Shown here: positions 837 to 43,473 of the stretch, piece by piece
Layout of the letters: every line of letters starts with the position of its first letter
Position numbering within the stretch: position 1 is the stretch's first letter
NCBI GenBank assembly: GCA_041912175.1
Contig: JAYRNN010000209.1
Location: 1 to 55,375, forward strand
Source: Anaerolineales bacterium
GTDB lineage: Bacteria; Chloroflexota; Anaerolineae; Anaerolineales; UBA4823
DNA: 55,375 nt
Reading direction: 5' to 3'
The notes under the pieces: generated by a model
Told to the model about the DNA's origin: nothing
Database searches by the model: none
The model's input: the letters and a program-made list of their open reading frames with translations, nothing else
Translations under genes and position numbers: made by a program

Positions 837-1571
837 TTACCAGCCTGCTGATAAGCGCTGAATATGCCGTTCTGGCAGCCCGACATTAAGCATGCGCGCC
901 TGCACGGATGCAATATCATAGGCTATTCTGCGGTAATGCCAGGTATTATCTTCTGATTCATAGATAGCATATGCCGCACGTGGATCGCGATCACGAGGTT
1001 GGCCGACGGAGCCCGGGTTGACGATCGACCGCCATTTCAGCTTAATCATCGTATTGGGTTCAGGGATTTCGAGTTGGGTTGAATATTCCTTGCCGTCCAG
1101 GCTGTAGATTACAGGTAAGTGAGTATGCCCCACGAAGCAATAAGGAGTCTCAAAATAGTCAAAATTGTACGAAGCAGTCCGAGTATCCAGTAAATATTCC
1201 CAAACAGGATATCGTGGACTACCGTGTGACAGGGTTACTTCATTCACCTGGAGCTTTTCGGGTAGTGAGCGTAGAAAAATGGCGCTGCTGTCGGTGAGCG
1301 TTTTCTGGGTCCAATGGACTGCCTGGCGCGCTTCGGGATTGAATGCCCCAGTATCAATTTGATTCAACGCGGCGGCGTCGTGGTTGCCGAGAAGACAGAG
1401 CAGGTTAGGTAATTGACGTACTAGCTCAATGACTTCATTTGGATCTGGGCCATAACCGACCAGATCACCCAGGCACCAGGCAGCATCGATCTCCCCAGCA
1501 TCTTTTATCACTGTCTCGAGAGCGGTCAAGTTAGCATGAATATCGGAAATGATCAAAATGTGCATGATCAC
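837..1571 (-). CDS. Metallophosphoesterase (calcineurin-like, YfcE/MJ0936-type)
   Basis: Motifs ILIISDIHAN, GDLVGYGPDP, LLGNHD and GHTHLP match the metallophosphoesterase signature D-x-H / GD / GNH(D/E) / GH-x-H. The start lies 2 nt from the stop of the upstream methyltransferase. Confidence 0.85.
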   Translation of the reverse strand: MIMHILIISDIHANLTALETVIKDAGEIDAAWCLGDLVGYGPDPNEVIELVRQLPNLLCLLGNHDAAALNQIDTGAFNPEARQAVHWTQKTLTDSSAIFLRSLPEKLQVNEVTLSHGSPRYPVWEYLLDTRTASYNFDYFETPYCFVGHTHLPVIYSLDGKEYSTQLEIPEPNTMIKLKWRSIVNPGSVGQPRDRDPRAAYAIYESEDNTWHYRRIAYDIASVQARMLNVGLPERHIQRLSAGW

Positions 1572-1572
1572 C

Positions 1573-2337
1573 TTATTTTACCGCAGTCCACACTTGATAA
1601 AGGCCAGATTTAGCGTTCTCGCCATCGGAATAAAAGGTCTCCTGGATTTCGAAGTGGCTGGCAGCCGCCAATTCGGAGAGTTCACTCTCGTCAAACAAGT
1701 GAACATAGCGAAACCCCCTGCCTCCATACCGCCAATCCAGGAGATAGTCTCCAGGGTCAAGCAGCGAATCATCCATGTCGACAAGAGCCCATGGTTGGAT
1801 GCGCGCTTGAAGCTTCGGATTGCTCTGAAATTGCCATTCGGAGTGAATAAACTGCCCATATGGAGAAAGTAGCGAGTGGATTTTCTCAAACAGCTTCAGG
1901 CGTAATTCGCGTCCGGGGATATGATGCAAGACCGCGAAAGCCAGAACCTGCTCAAAAGAGCTGACTTTGGGTCCAGACATCGACATGGTGATTTCTTGTA
2001 GAAGAATTTGATCCCAATCTTGGGAAGTGAGATCAGCCCGTAAAAAAAGGGGGGGTGGATATCCTTCGACAACAGATCTTTGTCGGGCGATTTGCAGCAA
2101 CTCTGAGCTGCTATCGATGCCGAAATAATATCCCATGAACCTATGATGGACCAATGTGCGCCAGAGCTCACCATTACCACAACCTAAATCAAGGATTGAA
2201 GTTTGATTAGGAATCCGTTCCAGAATACGTCGTACGCCTGGTTGGATGCGTTGCCTGGTTTGGGAAAATTGGAGTGCGAAGGTCTGGTAAAATTGGCGGT
2301 TAAGGGCGATCAATCGATCACACGATTCTGGGTCCAT
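1573..2337 (-). CDS. Class-I SAM-dependent methyltransferase, Trm9/ALKBH8-like (candidate tRNA cm5U34 methyltransferase)
   Basis: Motifs FSQTR, ILDLGCGNGE, AFAVLHHIPGRELRLKLFEKIHSLLSPYGQFIHSEW and YVHLFDESELSEL resemble Trm9/ALKBH8-MT motifs as I remember them. The start was moved to the internal ATG at 2337 (MDPESCDRL...). The longer ORF-track start at 2460 would overlap elp3 and encodes a non-conserved leader. TATAAT (2350-2345, minus strand) lies 7 nt upstream of this ATG. Confidence 0.7.
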   Translation of the reverse strand: MDPESCDRLIALNRQFYQTFALQFSQTRQRIQPGVRRILERIPNQTSILDLGCGNGELWRTLVHHRFMGYYFGIDSSSELLQIARQRSVVEGYPPPLFLRADLTSQDWDQILLQEITMSMSGPKVSSFEQVLAFAVLHHIPGRELRLKLFEKIHSLLSPYGQFIHSEWQFQSNPKLQARIQPWALVDMDDSLLDPGDYLLDWRYGGRGFRYVHLFDESELSELAAASHFEIQETFYSDGENAKSGLYQVWTAVK

Positions 2338-2427
2338 AGCTGGTATTATAGCTTGAAAAATAAGTCGGCTTAATTTAATAATGAGATCTGCGATGAAATT
2401 GGAAATGGTGTAGAACGGTGAGCTCGT

Positions 2428-4026
2428 ATGAACTACGAAATCGATGATCAAACCTGGCAAAAAAATCGCCAGTATACCGCTGAGAAAATGGCTTTAGCCA
2501 AGCAGGCGTTATCCGAGGTCCGGCGTGGTCGTGAGGTTACGGATGTCATCCGTAAATACCCACTTCCTGGAGGCGGGCATATGGGAAAGCACTTATTGGT
2601 TGCAGCGTACCGCGAGCTCGTCGAAAGCGGGGAGTGGGCGCCAGATGCTACGCTTCTGGCGCGCATTCGGATGAAGCCGGTGCGCACACTTTATGGTGTG
2701 ACTACAGTAACAGTTTTAACAAAACCTTATCCGTGTCCGGGTAAATGTATTTTTTGCCCCACCGACGTGCGTATGCCTAAAAGTTATTTGCCCGATGAAC
2801 CAGGGGCGCGGCGCGGATTGCAACATGATTTTGATCCCTATGGACAAGTCGCCGGGCGTCTCGAAGCGCTGCAAGCCATTGGTCATCCGTCAGATAAGAT
2901 CGAGTTGCTTATTTTGGGAGGCACCTGGAGCGCTTACCGGCGTGACTATCAGGAATGGTTCGTCCAACGCTGCCTGGACGCGATGAACGGCTTCGATTCT
3001 CAGTCGTTAGATGACGCTCAATCCCACAATGAATCTGCCATTCATCGTAATGTGGGTCTGGTGATCGAGACACGCCCAGATCATGTTGATATAAATGAGT
3101 TAGCCTGGTTGCGGAGGTTGGGAGTTACCAAAGTACAATTAGGGGCGCAAAGCCTGGACAACCGAATACTGGAACTAAATCTGCGCGGCCATACCGCAGA
3201 GGAGACGCGCCGAGCGGTGGCTCTCTTACGCGCGGGAGGGTTTAAAATTGTGCTTCATTGGATGCCCAATCTATTAGGAGCTACACTTGAATCGGATCGC
3301 CAGGATTTTGCCCGGGTCTGGGAGGATTGCTGTCCCGATGAAATAAAAATCTATCCAAATCAGCTATTAGAAAACACCGAGCTATATCAATTTTGGCTGC
3401 AGGGTGAATATCGTCCCTATTCAACGCAGGACTTGATTCAACTGATTGCGGATATCAAACCTACCATTCCCCGTTACTGTCGGGTCAATCGTGTGATCCG
3501 TGATATTCCGTCCACCAATGTAGTTGAGGGCAATAAACGCACCAGCCTACGCCAGGACGTTGCCCAGGAGTTACAGCGCCGCGGTAAGACCTGCCAATGC
3601 ATCCGTTGCCGTGAAATTCGTGAACAATCCATGGATAACAACTCGTTGCAGCTTGATGACCTGGTTTATTCGGCAGGCGGCGCCGAAGAGCATTTTCTCT
3701 CTTTGGTCACCCCTGATGACCGCCTGGCAGGGTTCCTGCGCCTCTCATTGCCTGGTGTGAATTCGCCGGATAGCGGAATGGCCGATTTAAAGGGCGCTGC
3801 CATCATCCGCGAGGTTCATGTGTATGGCCAGTCCCTTCCGGTGGGCGCAGAAGAAATCGGAGCCGCCCAACATGCCGGCTTGGGTACACTCTTGTTGGAG
3901 AAAGCTGGGCAACTTGCGCGCCAGCGTGGATATGCCCGTCTAGCAGTGATCTCAGCAATTGGCGCCCGCCAATATTACATCAAGCGTGGATTCAAGCGCG
4001 GCGACCTGTATTTGATCAATGGTTGA
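2428..4026 (+). CDS. elp3: Elp3-type radical SAM / GNAT acetyltransferase (tRNA uridine-34 carboxymethylation enzyme homolog)
   Basis: Contains the CX3CX2C radical-SAM motif in KPYPCPGKCIFCPTD. Elp3-like core blocks LILGGTWSAY, VGLVIETRPD, TKVQLGAQSLD and KIVLHWMPNL are present. A second Cys cluster is GKTCQCIRCREIR. The C-terminal GNAT fold is HAGLGTLLLEKAGQLARQRGYARLAVISAIGARQYYIKRGF. Confidence 0.9.
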   Translation: MNYEIDDQTWQKNRQYTAEKMALAKQALSEVRRGREVTDVIRKYPLPGGGHMGKHLLVAAYRELVESGEWAPDATLLARIRMKPVRTLYGVTTVTVLTKPYPCPGKCIFCPTDVRMPKSYLPDEPGARRGLQHDFDPYGQVAGRLEALQAIGHPSDKIELLILGGTWSAYRRDYQEWFVQRCLDAMNGFDSQSLDDAQSHNESAIHRNVGLVIETRPDHVDINELAWLRRLGVTKVQLGAQSLDNRILELNLRGHTAEETRRAVALLRAGGFKIVLHWMPNLLGATLESDRQDFARVWEDCCPDEIKIYPNQLLENTELYQFWLQGEYRPYSTQDLIQLIADIKPTIPRYCRVNRVIRDIPSTNVVEGNKRTSLRQDVAQELQRRGKTCQCIRCREIREQSMDNNSLQLDDLVYSAGGAEEHFLSLVTPDDRLAGFLRLSLPGVNSPDSGMADLKGAAIIREVHVYGQSLPVGAEEIGAAQHAGLGTLLLEKAGQLARQRGYARLAVISAIGARQYYIKRGFKRGDLYLING

Positions 4027-4540
4027 ACATTTCATTGGTCTATTCTGGTTGTTTATAAAAGTTAACCTGCTCACTACTTCTGGGCCTGCCTCAGTCGGGC
4101 TCTTGTATAAAGAGGCGGTTGGGAAATTAATGACCGAGACCCAATTCGTTGAAGCAGTGGGTTTTTCCCAATTTCTTCCTGGCAGCGACGCGCTCCAACT
4201 CGCGATGTTTATTGGTTACAATGTTGGAGGGGTGCTTGGGGCATTTGCTGCGTTGCTGGGTTCTGTTTTGCCTCCAACGCTGATCATGTTGGGGGTTGTG
4301 GTGATCTTGCAGCGCTTACGGAATGAAGCCTGGATTGGAAGCTTCGTGCGAGGCTTAGCTCCGGCCGTAGCTGCCTTAATGGTTTTAGTTGCCTGGAAAC
4401 TCTTTAATAGCAGTAATGACCCAATCGCCTGGACCACAGTTATCATTGCGGGTTTAAGTTTTCTGGCGCTGCGTCTCAAGGTGCCTTCTCCGCTTGTGCT
4501 GCTGGGTGCTGGGATTATCGGGATCATCTTCTTGCGATGA
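4019..4540 (+). CDS. Short-chain chromate ion transporter (CHR) family protein, paralog 1
   Basis: CHR-family motif LFIKVNLLTTSGPASVGLLYKEAV...FLPGSDALQLAMFIGY; roughly 5 hydrophobic helices. The ATG overlaps the elp3 stop (atggttga). Confidence 0.8.
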   Translation: MVEHFIGLFWLFIKVNLLTTSGPASVGLLYKEAVGKLMTETQFVEAVGFSQFLPGSDALQLAMFIGYNVGGVLGAFAALLGSVLPPTLIMLGVVVILQRLRNEAWIGSFVRGLAPAVAALMVLVAWKLFNSSNDPIAWTTVIIAGLSFLALRLKVPSPLVLLGAGIIGIIFLR

Positions 4541-5136
4541 GCGAGCTACAAAATCTACCAGAATCTCCTGAATTGGAAAAACCCGAGCCGGCTGGATTGC
4601 TAGATGGCAAATCGGGTATGCAAAAGTGGTTTACGCTATTTTGGCTATTTATTAAAGTCAATGTGCTGACCACTTCAGGGCCTGCGTCTGTCGGACTGCT
4701 ATACAAAGAGGCGGTCGGGACGCTCATGACTGAAAGTGAATTTGTCGAAGCGGTTGGTTTCTCAAGCGTTGTACCTGGCAGTGAGGCGATGAAGCTGGCG
4801 ATGTTTGTAGGGTACGCGGCTGGAGGAGTTTCGGGGGCGACTGCTGCATTATTAGGCGCGATACTGCCTCCGACAATCATGATGTTGATCATAGTGGCAA
4901 TTTTGCAGCGCGTGCATAACGAAGCCTGGGTAGGACGTTTTGTGCATGGTTTGGTGCCGGCGGTTGCAGTCTTAATTGTGGTGGTTGCATGGGAAATCTT
5001 CTCGGGCAACGGTAACCGGATGAAGACGACAACGGTAATCATCGCGATCCTCAGCCTGGCGGCGTTATTGCTTGATGCGCCTGCCCCTATCGTCTTGCTC
5101 GGAGCTGGAGTTCTAGGGATCATATTGTTCCGATGA
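4537..5136 (+). CDS. Short-chain chromate ion transporter (CHR) family protein, paralog 2
   Basis: Same CHR motif (LFIKVNVLTTSGPASVGLLYKEAV...VPGSEAMKLAMFVGY). About two-thirds identical to the upstream paralog by eye. 4-nt ATGA overlap with it. Confidence 0.8.
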   Translation: MSELQNLPESPELEKPEPAGLLDGKSGMQKWFTLFWLFIKVNVLTTSGPASVGLLYKEAVGTLMTESEFVEAVGFSSVVPGSEAMKLAMFVGYAAGGVSGATAALLGAILPPTIMMLIIVAILQRVHNEAWVGRFVHGLVPAVAVLIVVVAWEIFSGNGNRMKTTTVIIAILSLAALLLDAPAPIVLLGAGVLGIILFR

Positions 5137-5984
5137 ATCAAAATAATTTTTCAATCCTACTTTGCACGAACGGCCACGAATCCACAAAACCGGCTTTAGA
5201 ATATGGAAGCTGGCTGGCAGGAATATTGGACAAACCCGTTACTTTGTTGGGTTTGAATGAAGATCAAACATTCAAGTCACAATTAAATGGATTAGTAGAA
5301 TCGGCTGCGCTCCAATTAAGCCAGAAAAATATCCAGTTTGATCAGAGGGTGGAAGATGGACCTGGCGCGGATGGGATTGCGCGGGCAGCCCAATCGGGCC
5401 ATTATCTAACTGTCGTTGGCCCATTAGGTCGGCCGGTCTGGCAGCGCGTTGTCCATGGGCGCTCATTCCGTCGTTTACTAGCCATGATTAAGACACCCAT
5501 CCTATATGTGCCTCGGTTTCGTCTGCCACTGAAACGTATGCTGATCTGTACAGGCGGATTGGGATATGCGCTTAGCCTGGAACGCCTGAGTTTACAGATA
5601 GCTAAGGCTGCGGGATGTGATATTACATTATTCCATGTGATTGAACCCATCAACCTGGATTATCCGACTGCCTCGGAAATTCAACATCATCCTGACGATA
5701 TCTTGGAAACTGACACGCCTCAGGCGCACAATCTAAACCAGGCGCTGATGGAAATAAGTTCGGCAGGTCTCGCGAGCGAGTTGAAAGTTCGGCACGGAAG
5801 TATTGTCCATGAAATCCTTAAGGAAATACATGTGGGCGATTACGGATTCATTGGATTAGGATCTCCATACAGCACCAAAAGCTTACGCCATTTATACACG
5901 CCCAATGTCACGGCTGAAGTTGCAGAATCGATCCAAACACCGGTGCTATCTGTCCGCGTGGGTCAAGATTTTGTGCGATCCTGA
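5133..5984 (+). CDS. Universal stress protein family protein (tandem USP domains)
   Basis: Two USP-like halves: ILLCTNGHESTKPALEYG... and MLICTGG...ITLFHVIEP...GDYGFIGLGS...VAESIQTPVLSVR. 4-nt overlap with the upstream CHR gene. Confidence 0.7.
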   Translation: MNQNNFSILLCTNGHESTKPALEYGSWLAGILDKPVTLLGLNEDQTFKSQLNGLVESAALQLSQKNIQFDQRVEDGPGADGIARAAQSGHYLTVVGPLGRPVWQRVVHGRSFRRLLAMIKTPILYVPRFRLPLKRMLICTGGLGYALSLERLSLQIAKAAGCDITLFHVIEPINLDYPTASEIQHHPDDILETDTPQAHNLNQALMEISSAGLASELKVRHGSIVHEILKEIHVGDYGFIGLGSPYSTKSLRHLYTPNVTAEVAESIQTPVLSVRVGQDFVRS

Positions 5985-6032: not shown

Positions 6033-6060
6033 TTGACAGACTCGCAAACATGATTATAAT
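6033..6060 (+). promoter_or_regulatory. Consensus sigma-70-type promoter of the sugar ABC operon
   Basis: TTGACA (6033-6038), a 16-nt spacer, then TATAAT (6055-6060). Both hexamers match consensus perfectly, in the 355-bp intergenic region upstream of the binding-protein gene. Confidence 0.6.
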
Positions 6061-6182: not shown

Positions 6183-6212
6183 CGCCGCGGATTATTTACC
6201 CGTGGCGTTTTT
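6183..6212 (+). terminator. Intrinsic-terminator-like hairpin inside the long 5' leader of the ABC operon (candidate attenuator or sRNA 3' end)
   Basis: cgccgcgg (6183-6190) pairs with ccgtggcg (6200-6207): 8 bp including one G-U, with a 9-nt loop. TTTTT follows at 6208-6212. It lies about 145 nt downstream of the predicted start and 128 nt upstream of the ATG at 6340. Confidence 0.45.
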
Positions 6213-9133: not shown

Positions 9134-10242
9134 TGGCCGCCAAATCAACTGGTTTTCAGAAGCAAAAACGTTCTTCCAGCATTTTGGTCAATCTTACTTT
9201 GAGCATCATTTGCTTCATCTGGCTCCTTCCTGTGATTGGATTGTTAATCACATCATTTCGAAACAGTGATGACATCTTCAAAACTGGTTGGTGGACGGTA
9301 TTTCCACATCGCGAATACCAGACCACGCGCCAGATTGTCCTCGATCCATCTATTGATGTGAATGGACCGATGACGGTAGAAGGCGTCACGGCCACGTTCG
9401 ATGAGTTTCGCAATGGGGTGACCGCGCCGAATGGTGAAAAGCTGACCTGGTATGGCAATAAACGCACGCGCACGATCGATGTCTCTGAGCGGGTGTGGGT
9501 CGGCTTCAGCGCTAAGTTGAGTCTAAATAACTATATCAATGTACTATCTGGTAAACCGGTAACTTTTAAAGATGCTACCGGTCGTGAGATTGTGACGCGC
9601 GGCCCAAATCTGGGCAGTGCTTTCTTAAACTCACTGGCAGTAACCATTCCAGCTACGATTATTCCAATCTTGATCGCGGCTTTTGCAGCCTATGGATTTG
9701 CTTGGTTGAATTTCCCTGGGCGTAAATTGTTTTTTATTTTGGTGGTAGCAATGCTGGTTGTGCCATTGCAGATCGCCCTTGTGCCAATCTTGCAGGACTA
9801 TACCAGGCTTAATTTGAACGGCACTTTCCTGGCGATCTGGCTGGCTCATACCGGATTCGGTCTACCGCTCGCGGTTTACCTGCTATTCAACTACATCGCA
9901 TTGTTGCCACGCGAGATACTTGAATCAGCCTTCCTGGATGGCGCTTCGAATTTCACCATATTTACCCAATTAATCCTACCGCTATCAATTCCAGCTCTTG
10001 CATCCTTTGCAATATTCCAGTTCCTGTGGGTATGGAACGATTTTCTGGTGGCGTTGATCTTTTTGGGTACCAAAAACCGGGTTGTGACCAGCGCCTTGGC
10101 TAACCTGATTGGCGAGCGCGGCCAGGACTGGCATTTGCTAACCGCTGGTGCTTTTGTTTCAATGATCTTGCCGTTGTTCGTATTCATAGCCTTGCAGCGC
10201 TACTTTGTGCGCGGTATGATGGCTGGCTCAGTAAAAGGTTAA
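9133..10242 (+). CDS. Sugar ABC transporter permease (MalG/UgpE-like) with enlarged first extracytoplasmic loop
   Basis: EAA loop ILESAFLDGASNFTIFTQLILP and 6 predicted TM helices. About 110 aa are inserted between TM1 and TM2. The start overlaps the upstream stop (ctgATGg). Confidence 0.9.
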   Translation: MAAKSTGFQKQKRSSSILVNLTLSIICFIWLLPVIGLLITSFRNSDDIFKTGWWTVFPHREYQTTRQIVLDPSIDVNGPMTVEGVTATFDEFRNGVTAPNGEKLTWYGNKRTRTIDVSERVWVGFSAKLSLNNYINVLSGKPVTFKDATGREIVTRGPNLGSAFLNSLAVTIPATIIPILIAAFAAYGFAWLNFPGRKLFFILVVAMLVVPLQIALVPILQDYTRLNLNGTFLAIWLAHTGFGLPLAVYLLFNYIALLPREILESAFLDGASNFTIFTQLILPLSIPALASFAIFQFLWVWNDFLVALIFLGTKNRVVTSALANLIGERGQDWHLLTAGAFVSMILPLFVFIALQRYFVRGMMAGSVKG

Positions 10243-10364
10243 ATTCCTTATTTTCTATTCCAGATTGAACGGCGGAATCCGTAACCTGGAATGAACGGGG
10301 GGAGGTCATTAAAAGGCCTCCCTCCGATTAGAAAATCGGATGGGCATGTTTTGGAGGCAGGGAT

Positions 10365-11714
10365 TTGGATGAATTAAATTTTCCTGAAGGTTTTTTGTGG
10401 GGGGCGGCGACGTCCTCGTATCAAATCGAAGGCGCCTGGGACCTGGATGGAAAGGGTGAAAGCATCTGGGACCGTTTTTGTCATCACCAGGATATGATCG
10501 AAAATGGCGATACAGGGGATATCGCCATAGGTCATTATCATCGTATGCCTGAAGATGTGACTCTCATGCAAGAATTAGGCTTGCAGAGTTACCGCTTCTC
10601 AATCTGCTGGCCGCGCGTGCTCCCAAATGGGCGTGGCGCAATCAACATCCGTGGTCTGGATTTTTACGATCGCCTCGTGGATCTGCTCCTGGCAGCCGGG
10701 ATCCAGCCAAACGCAACCCTCAACCATTGGGATTATCCTCAGACGTTGCAAGAACAAGGCGGCTGGCTGAATCGGGACAGTTGCGACTGGTTCGCCGATT
10801 ATGCCAGTCTGATGTTCGCCAGGCTAGGCGATCGTGTTAAGCTCTGGGCGACTCATAATGAGCCCTGGGTTGTAGCTTTCTTAGGCTTCCAACTCGGGAT
10901 ATTCGCTCCTGGAAGGTGTGATTCCAGCGCTGCATACCAGGTAACCCACCACCTGTTGCTCTCCCACGCGAAGGCAGTGCAAGCATTCCACCAGGGCAAT
11001 CAAGAGGGCAAGATCGGGATCGTGTTGAACCTGCCCTGCTTTCAACCAGCCAGTGACAAGCCAGCGGATCTTTTTGCCTGGCGTCGCAGGCATATGGAAT
11101 TTTACAACTTATATTTAGATCCGATCTACAGGGGTTTTTATCCCCAAGAATTAATGGATTGGATCGGTCCCCACCAGCCGAAGATTCAACCCGGTGATCT
11201 GGAGCTGATCCATCAACCGATGGACTACCTGGGCCTGAATTATTATTCGACAGAGCTTGTCTCGCATGCTTTATGGGGAGGTTTGCTCAAAACCAGCTCC
11301 AGACCTCTATCTGGCCCAGGGTGGGGTGGTACAGCGATGAATTGGGGTATTTATCCCCCAGGGCTTAGCGATGTGTTAACCGATCTGCAGTTAAATTTCG
11401 GAAACCCACCGGTTTATATCGCAGAAAATGGCACTGCTTTGGAGGATATCCCCGATGAAAATGACCTTGTGGAAGATTGGGGACGGGTCAATTATTTGCG
11501 AGCGCATTTACAGGAAGTTCATGGCGCGATCCAAAAAGGTGCAAATGTGAAGGGCTATTATACGTGGAGCCTTTTTGATAATTTCGAATGGTCTTCCGGG
11601 TATCGGCCGCGTTTTGGCATCGTGCGGGTGAATTATGAGACCCTAAAGCGCACGCCAAAGCGAAGCGCCTGGTGGTACAAACATGTCATTAGGGAAAATG
11701 CTATAAACATATGA
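10365..11714 (+). CDS. GH1 beta-glucosidase
   Basis: GH1 signatures [21 protein letters not shown], the acid/base NEP in THNEPWV, and the nucleophile in YIAENG. TTG start, with GGAGG 7 nt upstream. Confidence 0.9.
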
Positions 11715-13354
11715 TTAGCAACGATCCGCTTTGGTTTAAAAACGCGATATTTTATGAAGTCTATGTGCGCGCCTTCTGTGATAGCAATTCCGATGGACAT
11801 GGCGACCTGCCAGGATTAATTCAAAAGCTGGATTATCTCCAAGCTCTGGGAGTAAATTGTATCTGGCTTTTGCCCATCTATCCATCCCCGTTACGCGATG
11901 ATGGCTATGATATAGCAGATTATTATGGCGTGCTGAGTACCTATGGTGAGCTGGATGATTTCCGAACCCTGGTTGATCAGACACATGCGCGTGGGATGCG
12001 GATTATTACCGATTTAGTCCTCAATCATACCTCAGACCAACATCCCTGGTTTCAGGCTTCTCGTTCTAGTCGGGATTCTCGCTTCCGTGATTACTATGTA
12101 TGGAGCGATACCGATCAAAAATATCAAGACGCACGCATCATTTTCCTGGATACAGAATCATCTAACTGGACATGGGATGCTCAAGCACAGCAATATTTCT
12201 GGCATCGTTTTTACGCAACGCAGCCCGATCTCAATTACGATAACCCAGAAGTTCAACAAGCCATGCTGAATGTCATGAGGTTCTGGTTAGACCTGGGGGT
12301 AGATGGTTTTCGCGCGGATGCTGTGCCTTACCTTTTTGAACGTGAAGGCGCCAACTGCGAAAATTTACCCGAGACACACAGCTATTTAAAGAAACTGCGC
12401 CGTTATATTGACGAGCACTATCCAGGTCGGATTTTACTGTGCGAGGCCAATCAATGGCCGGAGGACGTACGGCCTTATTTTGGAGACGGCGATGAGTTCC
12501 AAATCGGATTTCATTTCCCGGTGATGCCGCGTATCTATATGGCATTGCGCAAAGGTGATAAATCCGCGCTGGAATGGATCCTGGATCGTACGCCATCAAT
12601 CCCTGAGGAATGCCAGTGGTGTATATTCCTTCGCAATCATGACGAGTTGACCCTTGAAATGGTCACTGAAGAGGAACGCCAGTGGATGTGGCAAGAGTAT
12701 GCTCCGCAGATGCGCATGCGCCTCAACCTTGGTATCCGCCGCCGTCTGGCCCCTTTGCTGGATAATGACCGTCGTAAAATTGAATTAGCTAATTACTAGC
12801 TTTTTACGTTACCTGGTTCACCGATTATTTATTATGGCGATGAATTCGGTATGGGTGACAATATCGATATACCGGATCGGAATGGAGTGCGTACTCCCAT
12901 GCAGTGGAATTCCGATCCTTCAGCAGGATTTTCCAGCGCTGATCCGACCGAGTATTACGCGCCTGTGATCGAGAAAGCTCCTTTTAGCCCTGAACTAGTG
13001 AACGTGGCTGCTCAACGCTCGGATCCAAACTCACTTTGGCACACCGTTCAAAAAATGATCGCTTTGCGAAAGAAACACCCCGTTTTTGGCTGGGGAAAGT
13101 TTGAATGGGTGGATACCCAAAACCAGAGCATTGCTGGGTATTATCGTAGTAGCTCGGACGAGAAAATTTTAATTGTTAACAATCTTTCCGAAAAACCACA
13201 ACGACTTTCAATCTCCCTGAAAATGAATCAGAATTCTCGTTTGTTTAATTTGTGGGAAGGGGAAACGATGATCCCAACCTCGGCGAACGGGTTCGAACTT
13301 ACTCTTCAAGCATATCAATTTTTATGGTTAATGATTGAAGAACGACAAGGGTAG
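11711..13354 (+). pseudogene. treS: Trehalose synthase / maltose alpha-D-glucosyltransferase (GH13) interrupted by a single in-frame TAG at 12797-12799
   Basis: The ORFs 11711-12799 and 12851-13354 are in the same frame. Reading through the TAG gives ...[50 protein letters not shown]..., which is colinear with the remembered TreS block IELxxALLLSLPGSPxLYYGDEIGMGDN. All GH13 catalytic blocks are intact ([30 protein letters not shown]). The continuous reading frame is 547 codons. Confidence 0.75.
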
Positions 13355-15307: not shown

Positions 15308-17245
15308 ATGCCAGCTACGGAGCGTCAAATCAAGGTTTCGCTGTCTCGGCTATTGCCGCGGGTAGAGGCAGCCTTTGCTTCTGAGATCGCTCAAAAGCCT
15401 GAAGAATGGGCGGAGTTTGCTTGCCGTATTCAGAATCATTTCCCTCGTTTATTTCAAATCTATTACCTGCTTTACAGCCATGAGTATGACTTTTATTTTC
15501 ACTTAGAAGATTTACTGATGACCCTGGCGCGTTCCTGGCTCCTTCGACCTGCGGATTTAAAAACACTGGATACAGAACGTGAGGTCCACCCGAGATGGTT
15601 TGAATCAAATCGTCTTGTTGGCGGTGTCCTCTATGTTGACCTGTTTGCTGGCGATCTAGCAGGCGTCCGTGGCAGGATTCCGTACTTCAAGGAACTTGGC
15701 CTGAGCTATTTACATTTGATGCCACTTTTCCGCGTCCCGCAGGGAGAAAACGATGGCGGCTATGCTGTGAACAGCTATCGTGAGGTTAACCCGACCCTGG
15801 GAAGCATGCAGGAGCTCTCAGATCTGGCGCGTGAACTTCGCCAACATGGGATTAGCCTGGTGCTCGATCTGGTATTCAACCACACATCTAATGAGCATGA
15901 ATGGGCTGAACAAGCGATTGCAGGCGTTCAAGATTTTCAAGATTACTATCGCTTATTCCCAGATCGACAAATGCCGGATGCGTATGAAAGAAACCTGCGG
16001 GAAATTTTCCCCGATGAGCATCCAGGGATGTTTACCTTTTGGCCGGGGTTGGACAAATGGGTTTGGACCACTTTTCATTCGTACCAATGGGATTTAAACT
16101 ACGCTAATCCGACCGTGTTTAACCGCATGGCAGAAGAGATGCTCTTTATCGCCAACCAGGGCGTGGAGGTGATCCGCCTGGATGCGGTGGCTTTTATTTG
16201 GAAAGAGCTTGGCACAAATTGCGAAAATCTTCCCCAAGCTCATCAGCTCATCCAGGCATTCAATGCTGTTGCAAGGATCGCTTCTCCAGCCCTGTTGTTC
16301 AAATCAGAGGCGATCGTCCATCCAGATGAAGTTGTTAAGTATATTCAACCGGGTGAATGCCAGCTTTCTTACAATCCGCTGCTGATGGCGCTGTTGTGGG
16401 AATCCTTGGCAACGCGCAGTGTTCGCCTTCTCGACCAGGCGATGCGTGAGCGCTTTAAGCTGCCGGACGGCGCCGCCTGGGTTAATTATGTACGCTGCCA
16501 CGATGATATTGGTTGGACTTTTTCAGACGAAGCTGCAGCGCGCCTGGGGATCAATAGTTTTGAACACCGCAAGTTTTTGAATAATTTTTATATGGGAAGG
16601 TTTCCTGGCAGCTTCGCACGTGGCCTGCCATTTCAAGAGAACCCTAAGACTGGCGATGTGCGAATTTCAGGTACTTGCGCTTCGTTAGCTGGCCTGGAAA
16701 AAGCGATACGTGAAGAGACATCGGCTGAAGTTGAGCTGGCTATCCGGCGCATTTTTCTCATCCATGGGGTAATTCTGACTATCGGGGGTATTCCATTGCT
16801 TTATTTGGGCGATGAGATTGGTGGGCTAAACGATTACAGCTACCGGAGCGATCCGGCCAAAGCTGGCGACAGCCGTTGGGTTCACCGGCCTTTCGCAAAT
16901 GAAGAAGGTTATGCCCACCGCCAGGACCCATCCACGATTGAAGGACGAGTCTATAAAGGTCTTCAACGGTTGATCGCCTTACGTCTGTCCCATCAAGAAT
17001 TCTCCGGACAGCAAATGCAGGTAATCGAAACAGGCAACCAACAAGTATTAGGTTATATGCGGAGCCATGCCAACGAACGCGCGCTGATCCTGGCCAATTT
17101 TAGCGAGCGAGACCAAATTCTGCCAGCCAATCTGTTACGGTTGTATGGATTGGGCTACTTGTTTACCGATCTACTGAGTGGTGAGACAAACGCGATTGGC
17201 GATATTATCCTCGCTCCGTACGATTTTCGCGCCCTGGGCGTCTAA
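15308..17245 (+). CDS. Amylosucrase (GH13_4 sucrose glucosyltransferase)
   Basis: Close to the remembered Neisseria amylosucrase blocks: [130 protein letters not shown]. Start set at the ATG at 15308, after GGAGAAG. Confidence 0.85.
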
Positions 17246-31117: not shown

Positions 31118-32593
31118 TCAATCCAAATGAATTCGTTGCAGCTTTAGCTGGATCGCGGATTCGCTGGCAGGCTTCAAGCGGAATTGTTCGGCTATTCGAA
31201 GACCTGGAACCCAAACAATCTGATCCCCTGAGATGACGATTGGCCAGGCGGAGCGTACAAGGCTGGGCAGCTTTTGATTGATCATCATGTCGGAGATCTT
31301 TATCGAAGCTCCGCTCATACCTAATGGTTTCATGCGGTCGCCAGGCAGGCGAGGACGCACCTTCAGCCCTGACTTGATTTCTGATGCATCCAGCCAGGCA
31401 AAAAATGGCTCCTGGTTCTGTTCGGCCTGCAGCATAGCAGTCTGAATGTTAGGCGCAATTTCTGCGTCAAGCTGCCAGCCATTTGTCAGGGACAGTCTTC
31501 CTGGAACGTTTAGCGTAAATGTTTGGTTACGAGTGAGTTGGGGTAATTCTAAGATTTGCTCGTCTGGCAGCAGGGTATTCCAACCTGCCACCCATATCCT
31601 GGAAAGAGAAATTCTGAGCCTCAGACCGCCAATCCAGTCCGATTGTCCGCTCCTGCTCGGCTGGTCGATAAATGCACATGCTGTCTGTAGCGAAGGGTAA
31701 TCTACGTCCCGCAGGTCTGGCCGGAGCTGCCAGAGTGCACGGCGAAGCAAATGGCGCCGGACTGCAAACGATTGGGCGCGTAACGCGCTCAGGTCGAATG
31801 CAATCCAGTCAAGGTTTTCTTCAGCGAGGCATTCTTTCCATGCATTAGAAATGGTTCCGTCCAGAATACCCCTGTCTTCTCGAATGATATTGGCCATCTG
31901 CCATACGCGTTTTCGAAATCCTGGGTTATAGCTCTCGATATACGGGAGCAATTCGAGCCTGAGCTGGTTCCGATAATAACGCGTGTCGCGGTTGGTGGGA
32001 TCATAAACCGGTTGTAATCTATTCGCCTGAAGATAATCCAGGATATCTTGCCGCCAGATGCCTAAGAATGGCCGAATCAGGGGGATTTCGATGCTCCATG
32101 GATTGGGCAGGTTACGTATTTCCATGCCACGCAGCCCATCTAGGCCGCTGCCGCGCAAGAAATGCATCATGACTGTTTCAACCTGGTCATCGGCGGTATG
32201 ACCTGTCAAAACTGCCTGGGCCTGGTATAGGTGGGCCTGGTGGAATAAAAAACGGTAACGCAGTATTCGGGCGGCTTCTTCGATGGAGTAGTGATGCTCT
32301 TTTGCGAAGCCGGATATGTCTTCATGGCCGAGACAAAATTTTAAACCGCGCTCTTGAGCCATTTGTGCGACGGAAGAGGCATCTTCTACGGACTCTGGCC
32401 TTAGTTGGTGATCGAGATGGGCGACAATCACGTAATAACCAAGCTTCCAAACTACGTCAAGCAGGCAAAGGCTATCGGGACCACCTGATACAGCGAGAAT
32501 TAGGGGATCGCCAATCATCGTGCCGTCTCTGAACGAGTGTGGGTCAGCCAGCCCGCCTTCCGTTCGCAGGATACGTCCAATTTCCTCAATCAT
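31118..32593 (-). CDS. tilS: tRNA(Ile)-lysidine synthase
   Basis: PP-loop ILAVSGGPDSLCLL, the blocks LDHQLRPES and LTGHTADDQVETVMM, and a C-terminal TilS substrate-binding region. Confidence 0.9.
   Translation of the reverse strand: MIEEIGRILRTEGGLADPHSFRDGTMIGDPLILAVSGGPDSLCLLDVVWKLGYYVIVAHLDHQLRPESVEDASSVAQMAQERGLKFCLGHEDISGFAKEHHYSIEEAARILRYRFLFHQAHLYQAQAVLTGHTADDQVETVMMHFLRGSGLDGLRGMEIRNLPNPWSIEIPLIRPFLGIWRQDILDYLQANRLQPVYDPTNRDTRYYRNQLRLELLPYIESYNPGFRKRVWQMANIIREDRGILDGTISNAWKECLAEENLDWIAFDLSALRAQSFAVRRHLLRRALWQLRPDLRDVDYPSLQTACAFIDQPSRSGQSDWIGGLRLRISLSRIWVAGWNTLLPDEQILELPQLTRNQTFTLNVPGRLSLTNGWQLDAEIAPNIQTAMLQAEQNQEPFFAWLDASEIKSGLKVRPRLPGDRMKPLGMSGASIKISDMMINQKLPSLVRSAWPIVISGDQIVWVPGLRIAEQFRLKPASESAIQLKLQRIHLD

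Positions 32594-42273: not shown

Positions 42274-43473
<1,200 letters not shown>

Follow-up and report, generated by a model that had tools for sequence, protein, structure and literature searches.

We asked whether two divergently oriented genes of a bacterium from the phylum Chloroflexota could together carry out a two-step modification of the wobble uridine (U34) of tRNA, of the kind that is known from eukaryotes and archaea. The genes lie on contig JAYRNN010000209.1 of an Anaerolineales genome (assembly GCA_041912175.1), of which positions 1 to 55,375 were analysed; this whole stretch of 55,375 nucleotides (nt) is called the window here. On the forward strand, 2428..4026 codes for an Elp3 protein of 532 amino acids (aa) with radical-SAM (S-adenosylmethionine) and KAT/GNAT domains, a predicted synthase of 5-carboxymethyluridine (cm5U) at U34. 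On the reverse strand, 1573..2337 codes for a Trm9-like class I SAM methyltransferase (MT) of 254 aa, which is predicted to methylate the carboxyl group of cm5U34 to the ester mcm5U34. An AT-rich divergent intergenic region of 90 bp (2338..2427) is common to both genes. An earlier note on this DNA had taken the pair for a possible wobble uridine cassette.

We found that the MT has a fold of the Trm9 type and keeps the larger part of the active site of Trm9, that its neighbour belongs to the Elp3 family, and that the divergent pairing of the two genes is conserved. Judging from these sequence comparisons, we consider it rather probable that the pair is a two-gene divergent module of the eukaryotic and archaeal type in a member of the Anaerolineae, leading from cm5U34 to mcm5U34. 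The two genes themselves are as the earlier note had described them, in their coordinates, their divergent orientation, the 90-bp spacer and the class I fold of the MT. Products of 254 aa and 532 aa were also given by an independent gene caller in Logan metagenome contigs (SRR19238488 and sibling runs). The MT starts with the ATG at 2337, and its homologues all begin at the equivalent position of the alignment; a longer open reading frame (ORF) with a TTG start, reaching to 2460, would run into the start of Elp3.

The Elp3 and methyltransferase proteins

The ORF at 2428-4026 is a full-length Elp3 of the long form with all cofactor motifs, which bears out its earlier identification. It reaches 478.4 bits against the curated Elp3 model TIGR01211 (cutoff 350), with residues 72-529 aligned to model positions 47-518 of 522. 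The Pfam models Radical_SAM (PF04055, 46 bits vs 29.5) and Radical_SAM_C (PF16199, 66.7 vs 31.9) also match above their cutoffs, and the GNAT models stay slightly under theirs (20.5 vs 23.6). The cysteines of the 4Fe-4S cluster, C103-x3-C107-x2-C110, lie within CPGKCIFC, the cysteines of the CQCIRC motif are found at residue 389, and the acetyl-CoA motif, QHAGLG at residue 481, corresponds to QHMGYG in the Methanocaldococcus infernus protein (MinElp3) and to QHRGLG in the Dehalococcoides mccartyi protein (DmcElp3; PDB 5L7J, 5L7L and 6IA6). These two are the closest PDB matches of the window Elp3 (E ~1e-112) and score about equally. With 60 bits, the model for MnmL/YtqA (TIGR01212) remains under its cutoff of 180 and covers only a part of the radical-SAM domain.

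As in archaeal Elp3, the N-terminus of the window Elp3 is extended, here by about 75-80 aa (residues 1-80, window 2428-2670). The extension is kept in 75/75 Anaerolineae loci, with the motif W..R.YTPEKLALAR..LEEVR.G..V.DA.RR.PLP.GGYLGKH.LVAAYR.LVESGEW. DmcElp3 has the Elp3 core in common with the window protein (375 bits), but it is 459 aa long and lacks the extension. Its weak tRNA binding (~1.4 µM vs 50 nM) has been ascribed to the missing N-terminal region of archaeal and eukaryotic Elp3 (Lin et al., PMC6367351). The extension of the window protein sits where the archaeal tRNA-binding extension sits, an apparent equivalence in position only: it leaves positions 1-46 of TIGR01211 unaligned, and with 14 K+R vs 11 D+E in 83 aa it is, unlike the archaeal one, not strongly basic.

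What kind of methyltransferase is the MT? Among Pfam models only generic class I families match it, and no NCBIfam model does so above its cutoff. A phmmer search against the PDB gives chain 5cm2_Z as the best match (E 7.6e-6), that is, Yarrowia Trm9 in its complex with Trm112, and the alignment extends beyond the SAM motif through the C-terminal substrate-binding part. The motif matches given in the earlier note (FSQTR, LDLGCGNG, AVLHH and YVHLF) are reproduced in alignments to this deposited sequence. With a family alignment of 32 members as the query profile, hhalign relates the MT family to Yarrowia Trm9 with a probability of 98.05% (E 1.5e-13, 27% identity over 176 columns). The AlphaFold2 model of the MT (predicted local distance difference test, pLDDT, 92.3; predicted TM-score, pTM, 0.91) shows the Rossmann-type order of strands and helices, and Foldseek also places 5cm2_Z on top.

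Two further searches separate Trm9 from other methyltransferases. First, a profile of the C-terminal half alone, from the HH motif onwards, was compared with 177,635 PDB sequences; Trm9 is the only significant match (E 0.0015), and the next one (E 0.29) is unrelated. Second, in the reverse direction, Yarrowia Trm9 was searched against all ORFs with 60 aa or more from the window and from 85 Chloroflexota loci (1.30 Mb together), and 79 of its 80 matches are MTs adjacent to Elp3. Many MT homologues already carry the name "tRNA (uracil-5-)-methyltransferase TRM9" in the JGI/IMG source annotations.

In yeast, the activity of Trm9 needs R29, D72, H116, W145, W168, R241, Y243 and N271, with contributions from H115, Y18 and F25; the pair R29/H116 has been proposed to position the carboxylate of cm5U (Létoquart et al., PMC4678810). 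We located the equivalents of these residues through the phmmer and hhalign alignments and determined how often each is present among 81 members of the MT family. Besides SAM motif I (D/ExGxGxG), present as LDLGCGNG, most of the active site is invariant: the equivalents of Y18 (window Y17), F25 (F24), R29 (R28), H115 and H116 (H138 and H139), W145 (W168), W168 (W202), R241 (R210), Y242 (Y211), H244 (H213) and D270 (D238) are each found in 81/81 members, and the acidic residue at the end of beta2, D72 (D75), in 80/81. Of the eight essential residues, six are thus kept in the subfamily of the window MT, Y243 is replaced and N271 has no assignable equivalent, so that the substrate-binding residues, which the earlier note had expected in a true Trm9 relative, are present in larger part but not completely.

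The MT therefore resembles the Trm9 proteins of yeast and Yarrowia (5CM2, with Trm112) and the MT domain of ALKBH8 (with TRMT112) in its class I SAM fold, in the N-terminal helix motif Y..F(S)xTR, in the HH motif after beta4, in the Trp after beta5 and in a beta-hairpin with W...RYxH. It differs from Trm9 in its overall sequence (~27% identity), in the aliphatic residue at the place of Y243, in the N271 region, in the absence of a linked Trm112 gene and in its bacterial host. Yeast Trm9 also carries a long Lys-rich insertion, for which the window MT has no counterpart.

A few members of the MT family are longer than the others (P0244, P0247, P0257 and P0256). Three of them contain a DUF559 domain (Vsr-like endonuclease) in the middle of the protein, at about profile position 90, and in one a GNAT domain is fused to the C-terminus; none of the long members contains Trm112 or a domain for tRNA binding. 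From their position, the DUF559 insertions look like a mobile endonuclease domain in a tolerant loop.

Linkage of the two genes in Chloroflexota

A profile scan for the MT family over one genome per species (GTDB) gave 294 relatives, and the loci of the best 80 of these 294 were analysed. They come from metagenome-assembled genomes of Chloroflexota, mostly Anaerolineales and other Anaerolineae, and one is labelled Bacteroidetes. A divergent Elp3 gene lies directly upstream of the MT in 75 of the 80 loci. In three of the five exceptions the MT is too near to the contig end to be informative, which leaves 75 of 77 informative loci. The spacer between the two genes has a median of about 47 nt across the 75 pairs.

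True separations are seen in two related Anaerolineae genomes (L066 and L073), where the MT lies at 10001-10723 and 10001-10711, respectively, and a small membrane-protein gene takes the upstream place. L073 has in addition a second, weak Trm9-like ORF at 16256-16906 (E 5e-4).

With the deposited DmcElp3 sequence as a probe, we also looked at the class Dehalococcoidia. In D. mccartyi (CP019867.1), the organism of the crystallised bacterial Elp3, a class I MT of 224 aa is placed head-to-head with the Elp3 gene, with a spacer of 43 bp. The same layout is found in three more Dehalococcoidia genomes, that is, in 4/4 informative loci; a fifth locus ends at a contig edge. The adjacency in relatives that the earlier note had asked for is thus found in both classes. 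The Dehalococcoidia MTs form a distinct, shorter subfamily (218-224 aa) which is only 24-30% identical to the window MT, and hhalign connects it to the window family with a probability of 98.4% (E 1e-14). This subfamily is nearer to Trm9 (E 2e-18 to 4e-11 in the search with Yarrowia Trm9) and keeps the equivalents of D72, H115, H116, W145, W168, R241, Y242, Y243 and N271. By eye, its W-Y-x-F/Y-R-H matches H-F-S-Q-T-R-Y, which would conserve R29 too. Two diverged MT subfamilies hence occupy the same place beside Elp3 in two classes while all other neighbours change, and we regard this as strong evidence of a functional pair.

There is no third conserved gene. When the ORFs within 4 kb of the pair were clustered, the best family was present in only 25/81 loci, and the conserved unit is therefore the two genes. 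The earlier note had pointed to an odd operon context, and the junctions that it described do exist: a calcineurin-like (YfcE-type) metallophosphoesterase gene (837..1571, -; Pfam Metallophos_2 and Metallophos) lies directly 3' of the MT, with a gap of 1 nt between the MT stop and its start, and Elp3 is followed by two half-size CHR genes (Pfam Chromate_transp; 4019-4540 and 4537-5136, both +) and a tandem-USP gene (5133-5984, +), a CHR-CHR-USP stretch (4019..5984) in which start and stop codons overlap by 8, 4 and 4 nt at Elp3/CHR1, CHR1/CHR2 and CHR2/USP. However, this context is lineage-specific synteny and not part of a module. By tblastn, the phosphoesterase is found 3' of the MT in about 30/80 loci (24/81 by a stricter clustering of neighbours) and the CHR-CHR-USP trio directly 3' of Elp3 in about 12/80, in both cases only among closer relatives. 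We rejected the phosphoesterase, CHR and USP genes as parts of the module for this reason and take their presence to be incidental; they would be neighbours by descent only.

The earlier note had called bacterial Elp3 homologues sporadic, which understates their distribution. In the Elp3 field, bacterial Elp3 is treated as a curiosity of Dehalococcoides, whereas it is the rule in the Anaerolineae sampled here (75/80 species-level loci with Elp3 beside the MT) and is almost always tied to a Trm9-like MT, D. mccartyi included.

Predicted pathway and competing explanations

How could the two enzymes work together? In the first step, the stand-alone Elp3 would use its radical-SAM cluster and acetyl-CoA to convert U34 of certain tRNAs into cm5U34, by attaching a carboxymethyl group to its C5. 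We propose this step because of the Elp3 family membership and of what has been published on Elp3 from archaea and D. mccartyi. In the second step, R28 and H139 of the MT (R29 and H116 in Saccharomyces cerevisiae) would orient the carboxylate of cm5U, W168, W202, R210 and H138 would stack on or recognise the nucleotide base, and the methyl group of SAM would be transferred to the carboxylate to form the methyl ester mcm5U34; here homology, the conservation of the active site and the gene linkage are the grounds. The short common spacer would let both genes be expressed together. Eukaryotic Trm9 acts downstream of Elp3, and a like role is predicted for the window MT. An analogous carboxyl O-methylation on a wobble uridine side chain is carried out by CmoM, an unrelated enzyme which methyl-esterifies uridine 5-oxyacetic acid (cmo5U).

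The nearest precedent is archaeal. There, as in the window, Elp3 stands alone without Elp1, 2, 4, 5 and 6. The Trm9-Trm112 complex of Haloferax volcanii (HvoTrm9, HVO_1032) makes mcm5U, with Trm112 required in vivo, and the genes for Elp3 and Trm9 are reported to cluster in Sulfolobus solfataricus (PMC6144793). On the evidence available, a bacterial mcm5U route would be a pathway known from eukaryotes and archaea that is now met in bacteria; an earlier description in the literature is possible. A paper on Elp3 (PMC7663514) does not mention Trm9 at all.

Several observations weigh against an mcm5U34 module, and they concern the substrate pocket, Trm112, the specificity of the match to Trm9 and the state of knowledge on bacterial tRNA. 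To begin with the pocket, the position equivalent to Y243 (window position 212) is never Tyr in the 81 family members, which have Val (70), Ala (7), Ile (3) or Leu (1) there. The position of N271 is an invariant Gly followed by a loop insertion, an Asn at 241 is present in only 31/81 members, and no conserved Asn can be assigned; the hhalign alignment of the MT and Trm9 ends before this region. In yeast Trm9, Y243A keeps about 10% of the activity, and N271 has been proposed to read O2 and N3 of U34 (PMC4678810). The last strand of the MT family has instead an invariant, family-specific Y247-Q248-x-W250, in which Q248 might take over the role of N271.

These replacements lead to the strongest of the alternatives, namely that the MT is a true Trm9 relative which works with Elp3 but performs another chemistry or yields another end product, for example on a different Elp3-derived intermediate or on a thiolated or otherwise altered U34. 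The branching of the pathway in H. volcanii, where cm5U is rapidly turned into other unidentified products if Trm9 is missing (PMC6144793), speaks for it in the same way as the altered pocket with its own invariant motif. On the other hand, the equivalents of the R29/H116 pair, of both tryptophans and of R241 are invariant in the MT family, and the Dehalococcoidia sister subfamily, at the same genomic position, keeps the Trm9 set including Y243 and N271. We regard another product as possible, yet unlikely.

The second difficulty is Trm112, which Trm9 needs in eukaryotes and archaea. With a single YcaR probe, no Trm112-like ORF was found, neither in the window nor up to 10 kb from the pair in any of the 80 loci. 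Trm112 contacts strand beta3 and the beta3-beta4 loop of Trm9. This loop has 11 residues in Trm9, 26 in the window MT and anything from 12 to 54 across the MT family, a variability that fits poorly with a conserved Trm112 interface, although it is no proof. The idea that an insertion after beta3 stands in for Trm112 was considered as well and is weakened by the same numbers, since the loop varies in length and contains no fixed added element. The Anaerolineae MT may be independent of Trm112, and it would be a natural test of Trm9 function without this partner.

The Dehalococcoidia differ from the Anaerolineae in this respect. One or two genes 3' of the MT, 4/4 of their loci contain a gene for a four-cysteine zinc ribbon of 72-75 aa (L081:8423-8650, L082:8387-8605, L084:2967-3185 and L085:3002-3226, all on the minus strand), with the pattern CPxC-18-CWKC followed by LYTIxIKNGAVV and, at the C-terminus, a basic helix. 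It does not match Pfam Trm112p, no PDB entry matches it, Trm112 included, and the Anaerolineae loci have no counterpart. It could be a Trm112 analogue.

The remaining reservations concern the match to Trm9 and bear on a second alternative, according to which the MT is an unrelated methyltransferase for small molecules or proteins (UbiE/UbiG-like or similar) and stands beside Elp3 through inherited synteny. With the full-length family profile, Trm9 is only third in the PDB (E 2.2e-8), after two uncharacterised archaeal MTs. That test alone is indecisive, which is why the C-terminal-half profile and the reciprocal search were used. The margin of Trm9 over other small class I MTs in Foldseek is slim, the Pfam matches are generic, NCBI labels the MT family no more precisely than as a class I methyltransferase, and in some JGI entries it is called UbiG-like. 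Against curated models, however, the MT scores only 26.1 bits for UbiE (cutoff 216), 21.1 for UbiG (103) and 19.1 for MenG/UbiE (158), and all matches to UbiE, UbiG, MenG and BioC models are restricted to the region of the SAM motif (residues 41-141; 19-26 bits vs 103-216). The kinship with quinone methyltransferases against which the earlier note had warned is thus not found. Since moreover the substrate-binding half matches Trm9 alone, Trm9 picks almost only Elp3-adjacent MTs out of 1.3 Mb, and inherited synteny would have to preserve this one adjacency in both subfamilies and both classes, an unrelated MT seems quite improbable to us.

Finally, a reading in which the Elp3 homologue does not modify tRNA but is an acetyltransferase for proteins or small molecules, or another radical-SAM enzyme, with the MT in that same pathway, could appeal to the weak in vitro activity and weak tRNA binding of DmcElp3 (PMC6367351; PMC7663514) and to the lack of reported bacterial xcm5U, but it is very hard to reconcile with an Elp3 far above the family cutoff with all motifs present, with a conserved N-terminal extension positioned like the archaeal one that has been tied to tight tRNA binding (Lin et al., PMC6367351), and with a conserved partner related to a tRNA U34 methyltransferase. 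According to the Elp3 literature, evidence of xcm5U34 in bacteria with Elp3 is lacking so far, partly since they are hard to grow (PMC7663514), and this is a point against mcm5U34 as the product as well.

For the two-gene module leading to mcm5U34, which we continue to favour, the practical consequence is a concrete prediction, namely a tRNA modification of the mcm5U34 type in the bacterial phylum Chloroflexota. The long-form Anaerolineae Elp3 and its MT are probably a more tractable enzyme pair, and this Elp3 may lend itself better to experiments than DmcElp3, which has the same head-to-head layout in the same phylum but an MT partner of the other, shorter subfamily closer to Trm9, with the conserved zinc-ribbon gene nearby. 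One can go further and suppose that mcm5U34 would be phylum-wide in Chloroflexota, maintained vertically by the cassette and the first mcm5U in bacteria, that the Anaerolineae MT would have become Trm112-independent through the loop and the changes at Y243 and N271, that the Dehalococcoidia zinc ribbon would serve as an activator, and that the long-form Elp3 would be far more active than DmcElp3. Taken jointly, we think this doubtful.

Control region and the rest of the window

The 90-bp region between the two genes contains a promoter-like sequence, TTGAAA-18-AATAAT, at 2353-2382 (+), a consensus match only, and GGTGAG precedes the ATG of Elp3 by 5 nt. The minus strand has a TATAAT hexamer (2338-2350) that precedes the ATG of the MT by 7 nt. 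Given this closeness to the start codon, the MT mRNA could be leaderless or have a very short leader.

The G+C content around the pair equals that of the rest of the window, which is an ordinary bacterial chromosome with genes for sugar uptake, glycosidases, FTHFS, MutL and proteases. Bacterial MnmE and MnmG, which make 5-carboxymethylaminomethyluridine (cmnm5U) and 5-aminomethyluridine (nm5U), modify the same nucleotide U34 and likewise tune wobble decoding, with enzymes unrelated to Elp3 and Trm9. Neither MnmE, MnmG nor Trm112 was found in the window, which also lacks tRNA genes and Rfam matches. It does contain the genes for lysidine synthase, TilS (31118-32593, -), and for queuine tRNA-ribosyltransferase, Tgt (42274-43473, -), so the organism combines typical bacterial enzymes for position 34 with an Elp3 route of the archaeal and eukaryotic type. 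In two other loci, rsmG (GidB) is found near the pair (L086:5550-6260 and L089:5731-6441, about 2 kb beyond the left edge of the window), flanked by an SMC/RecF-like or a MOSC gene instead of mnmG, which usually adjoins it in bacteria; this hints only weakly that MnmG may be absent or encoded elsewhere.

Three minor features of the window may be added. A perfect TTGACA-16-TATAAT is present at 6033-6060 (+), upstream of the gene for a sugar-binding protein at 6202. An antisense ORF of 205 aa on the minus strand (4524-5141), which overlaps with the second CHR gene, is unsupported and almost certainly not a real gene. A gene of the alpha-amylase family is split into the ORFs 11711-12799 and 12851-13354 (both +), which match positions 2-329 and 383-445 of the 446 positions of Pfam Alpha-amylase, probably because of a frameshift, a pseudogene or an assembly error.

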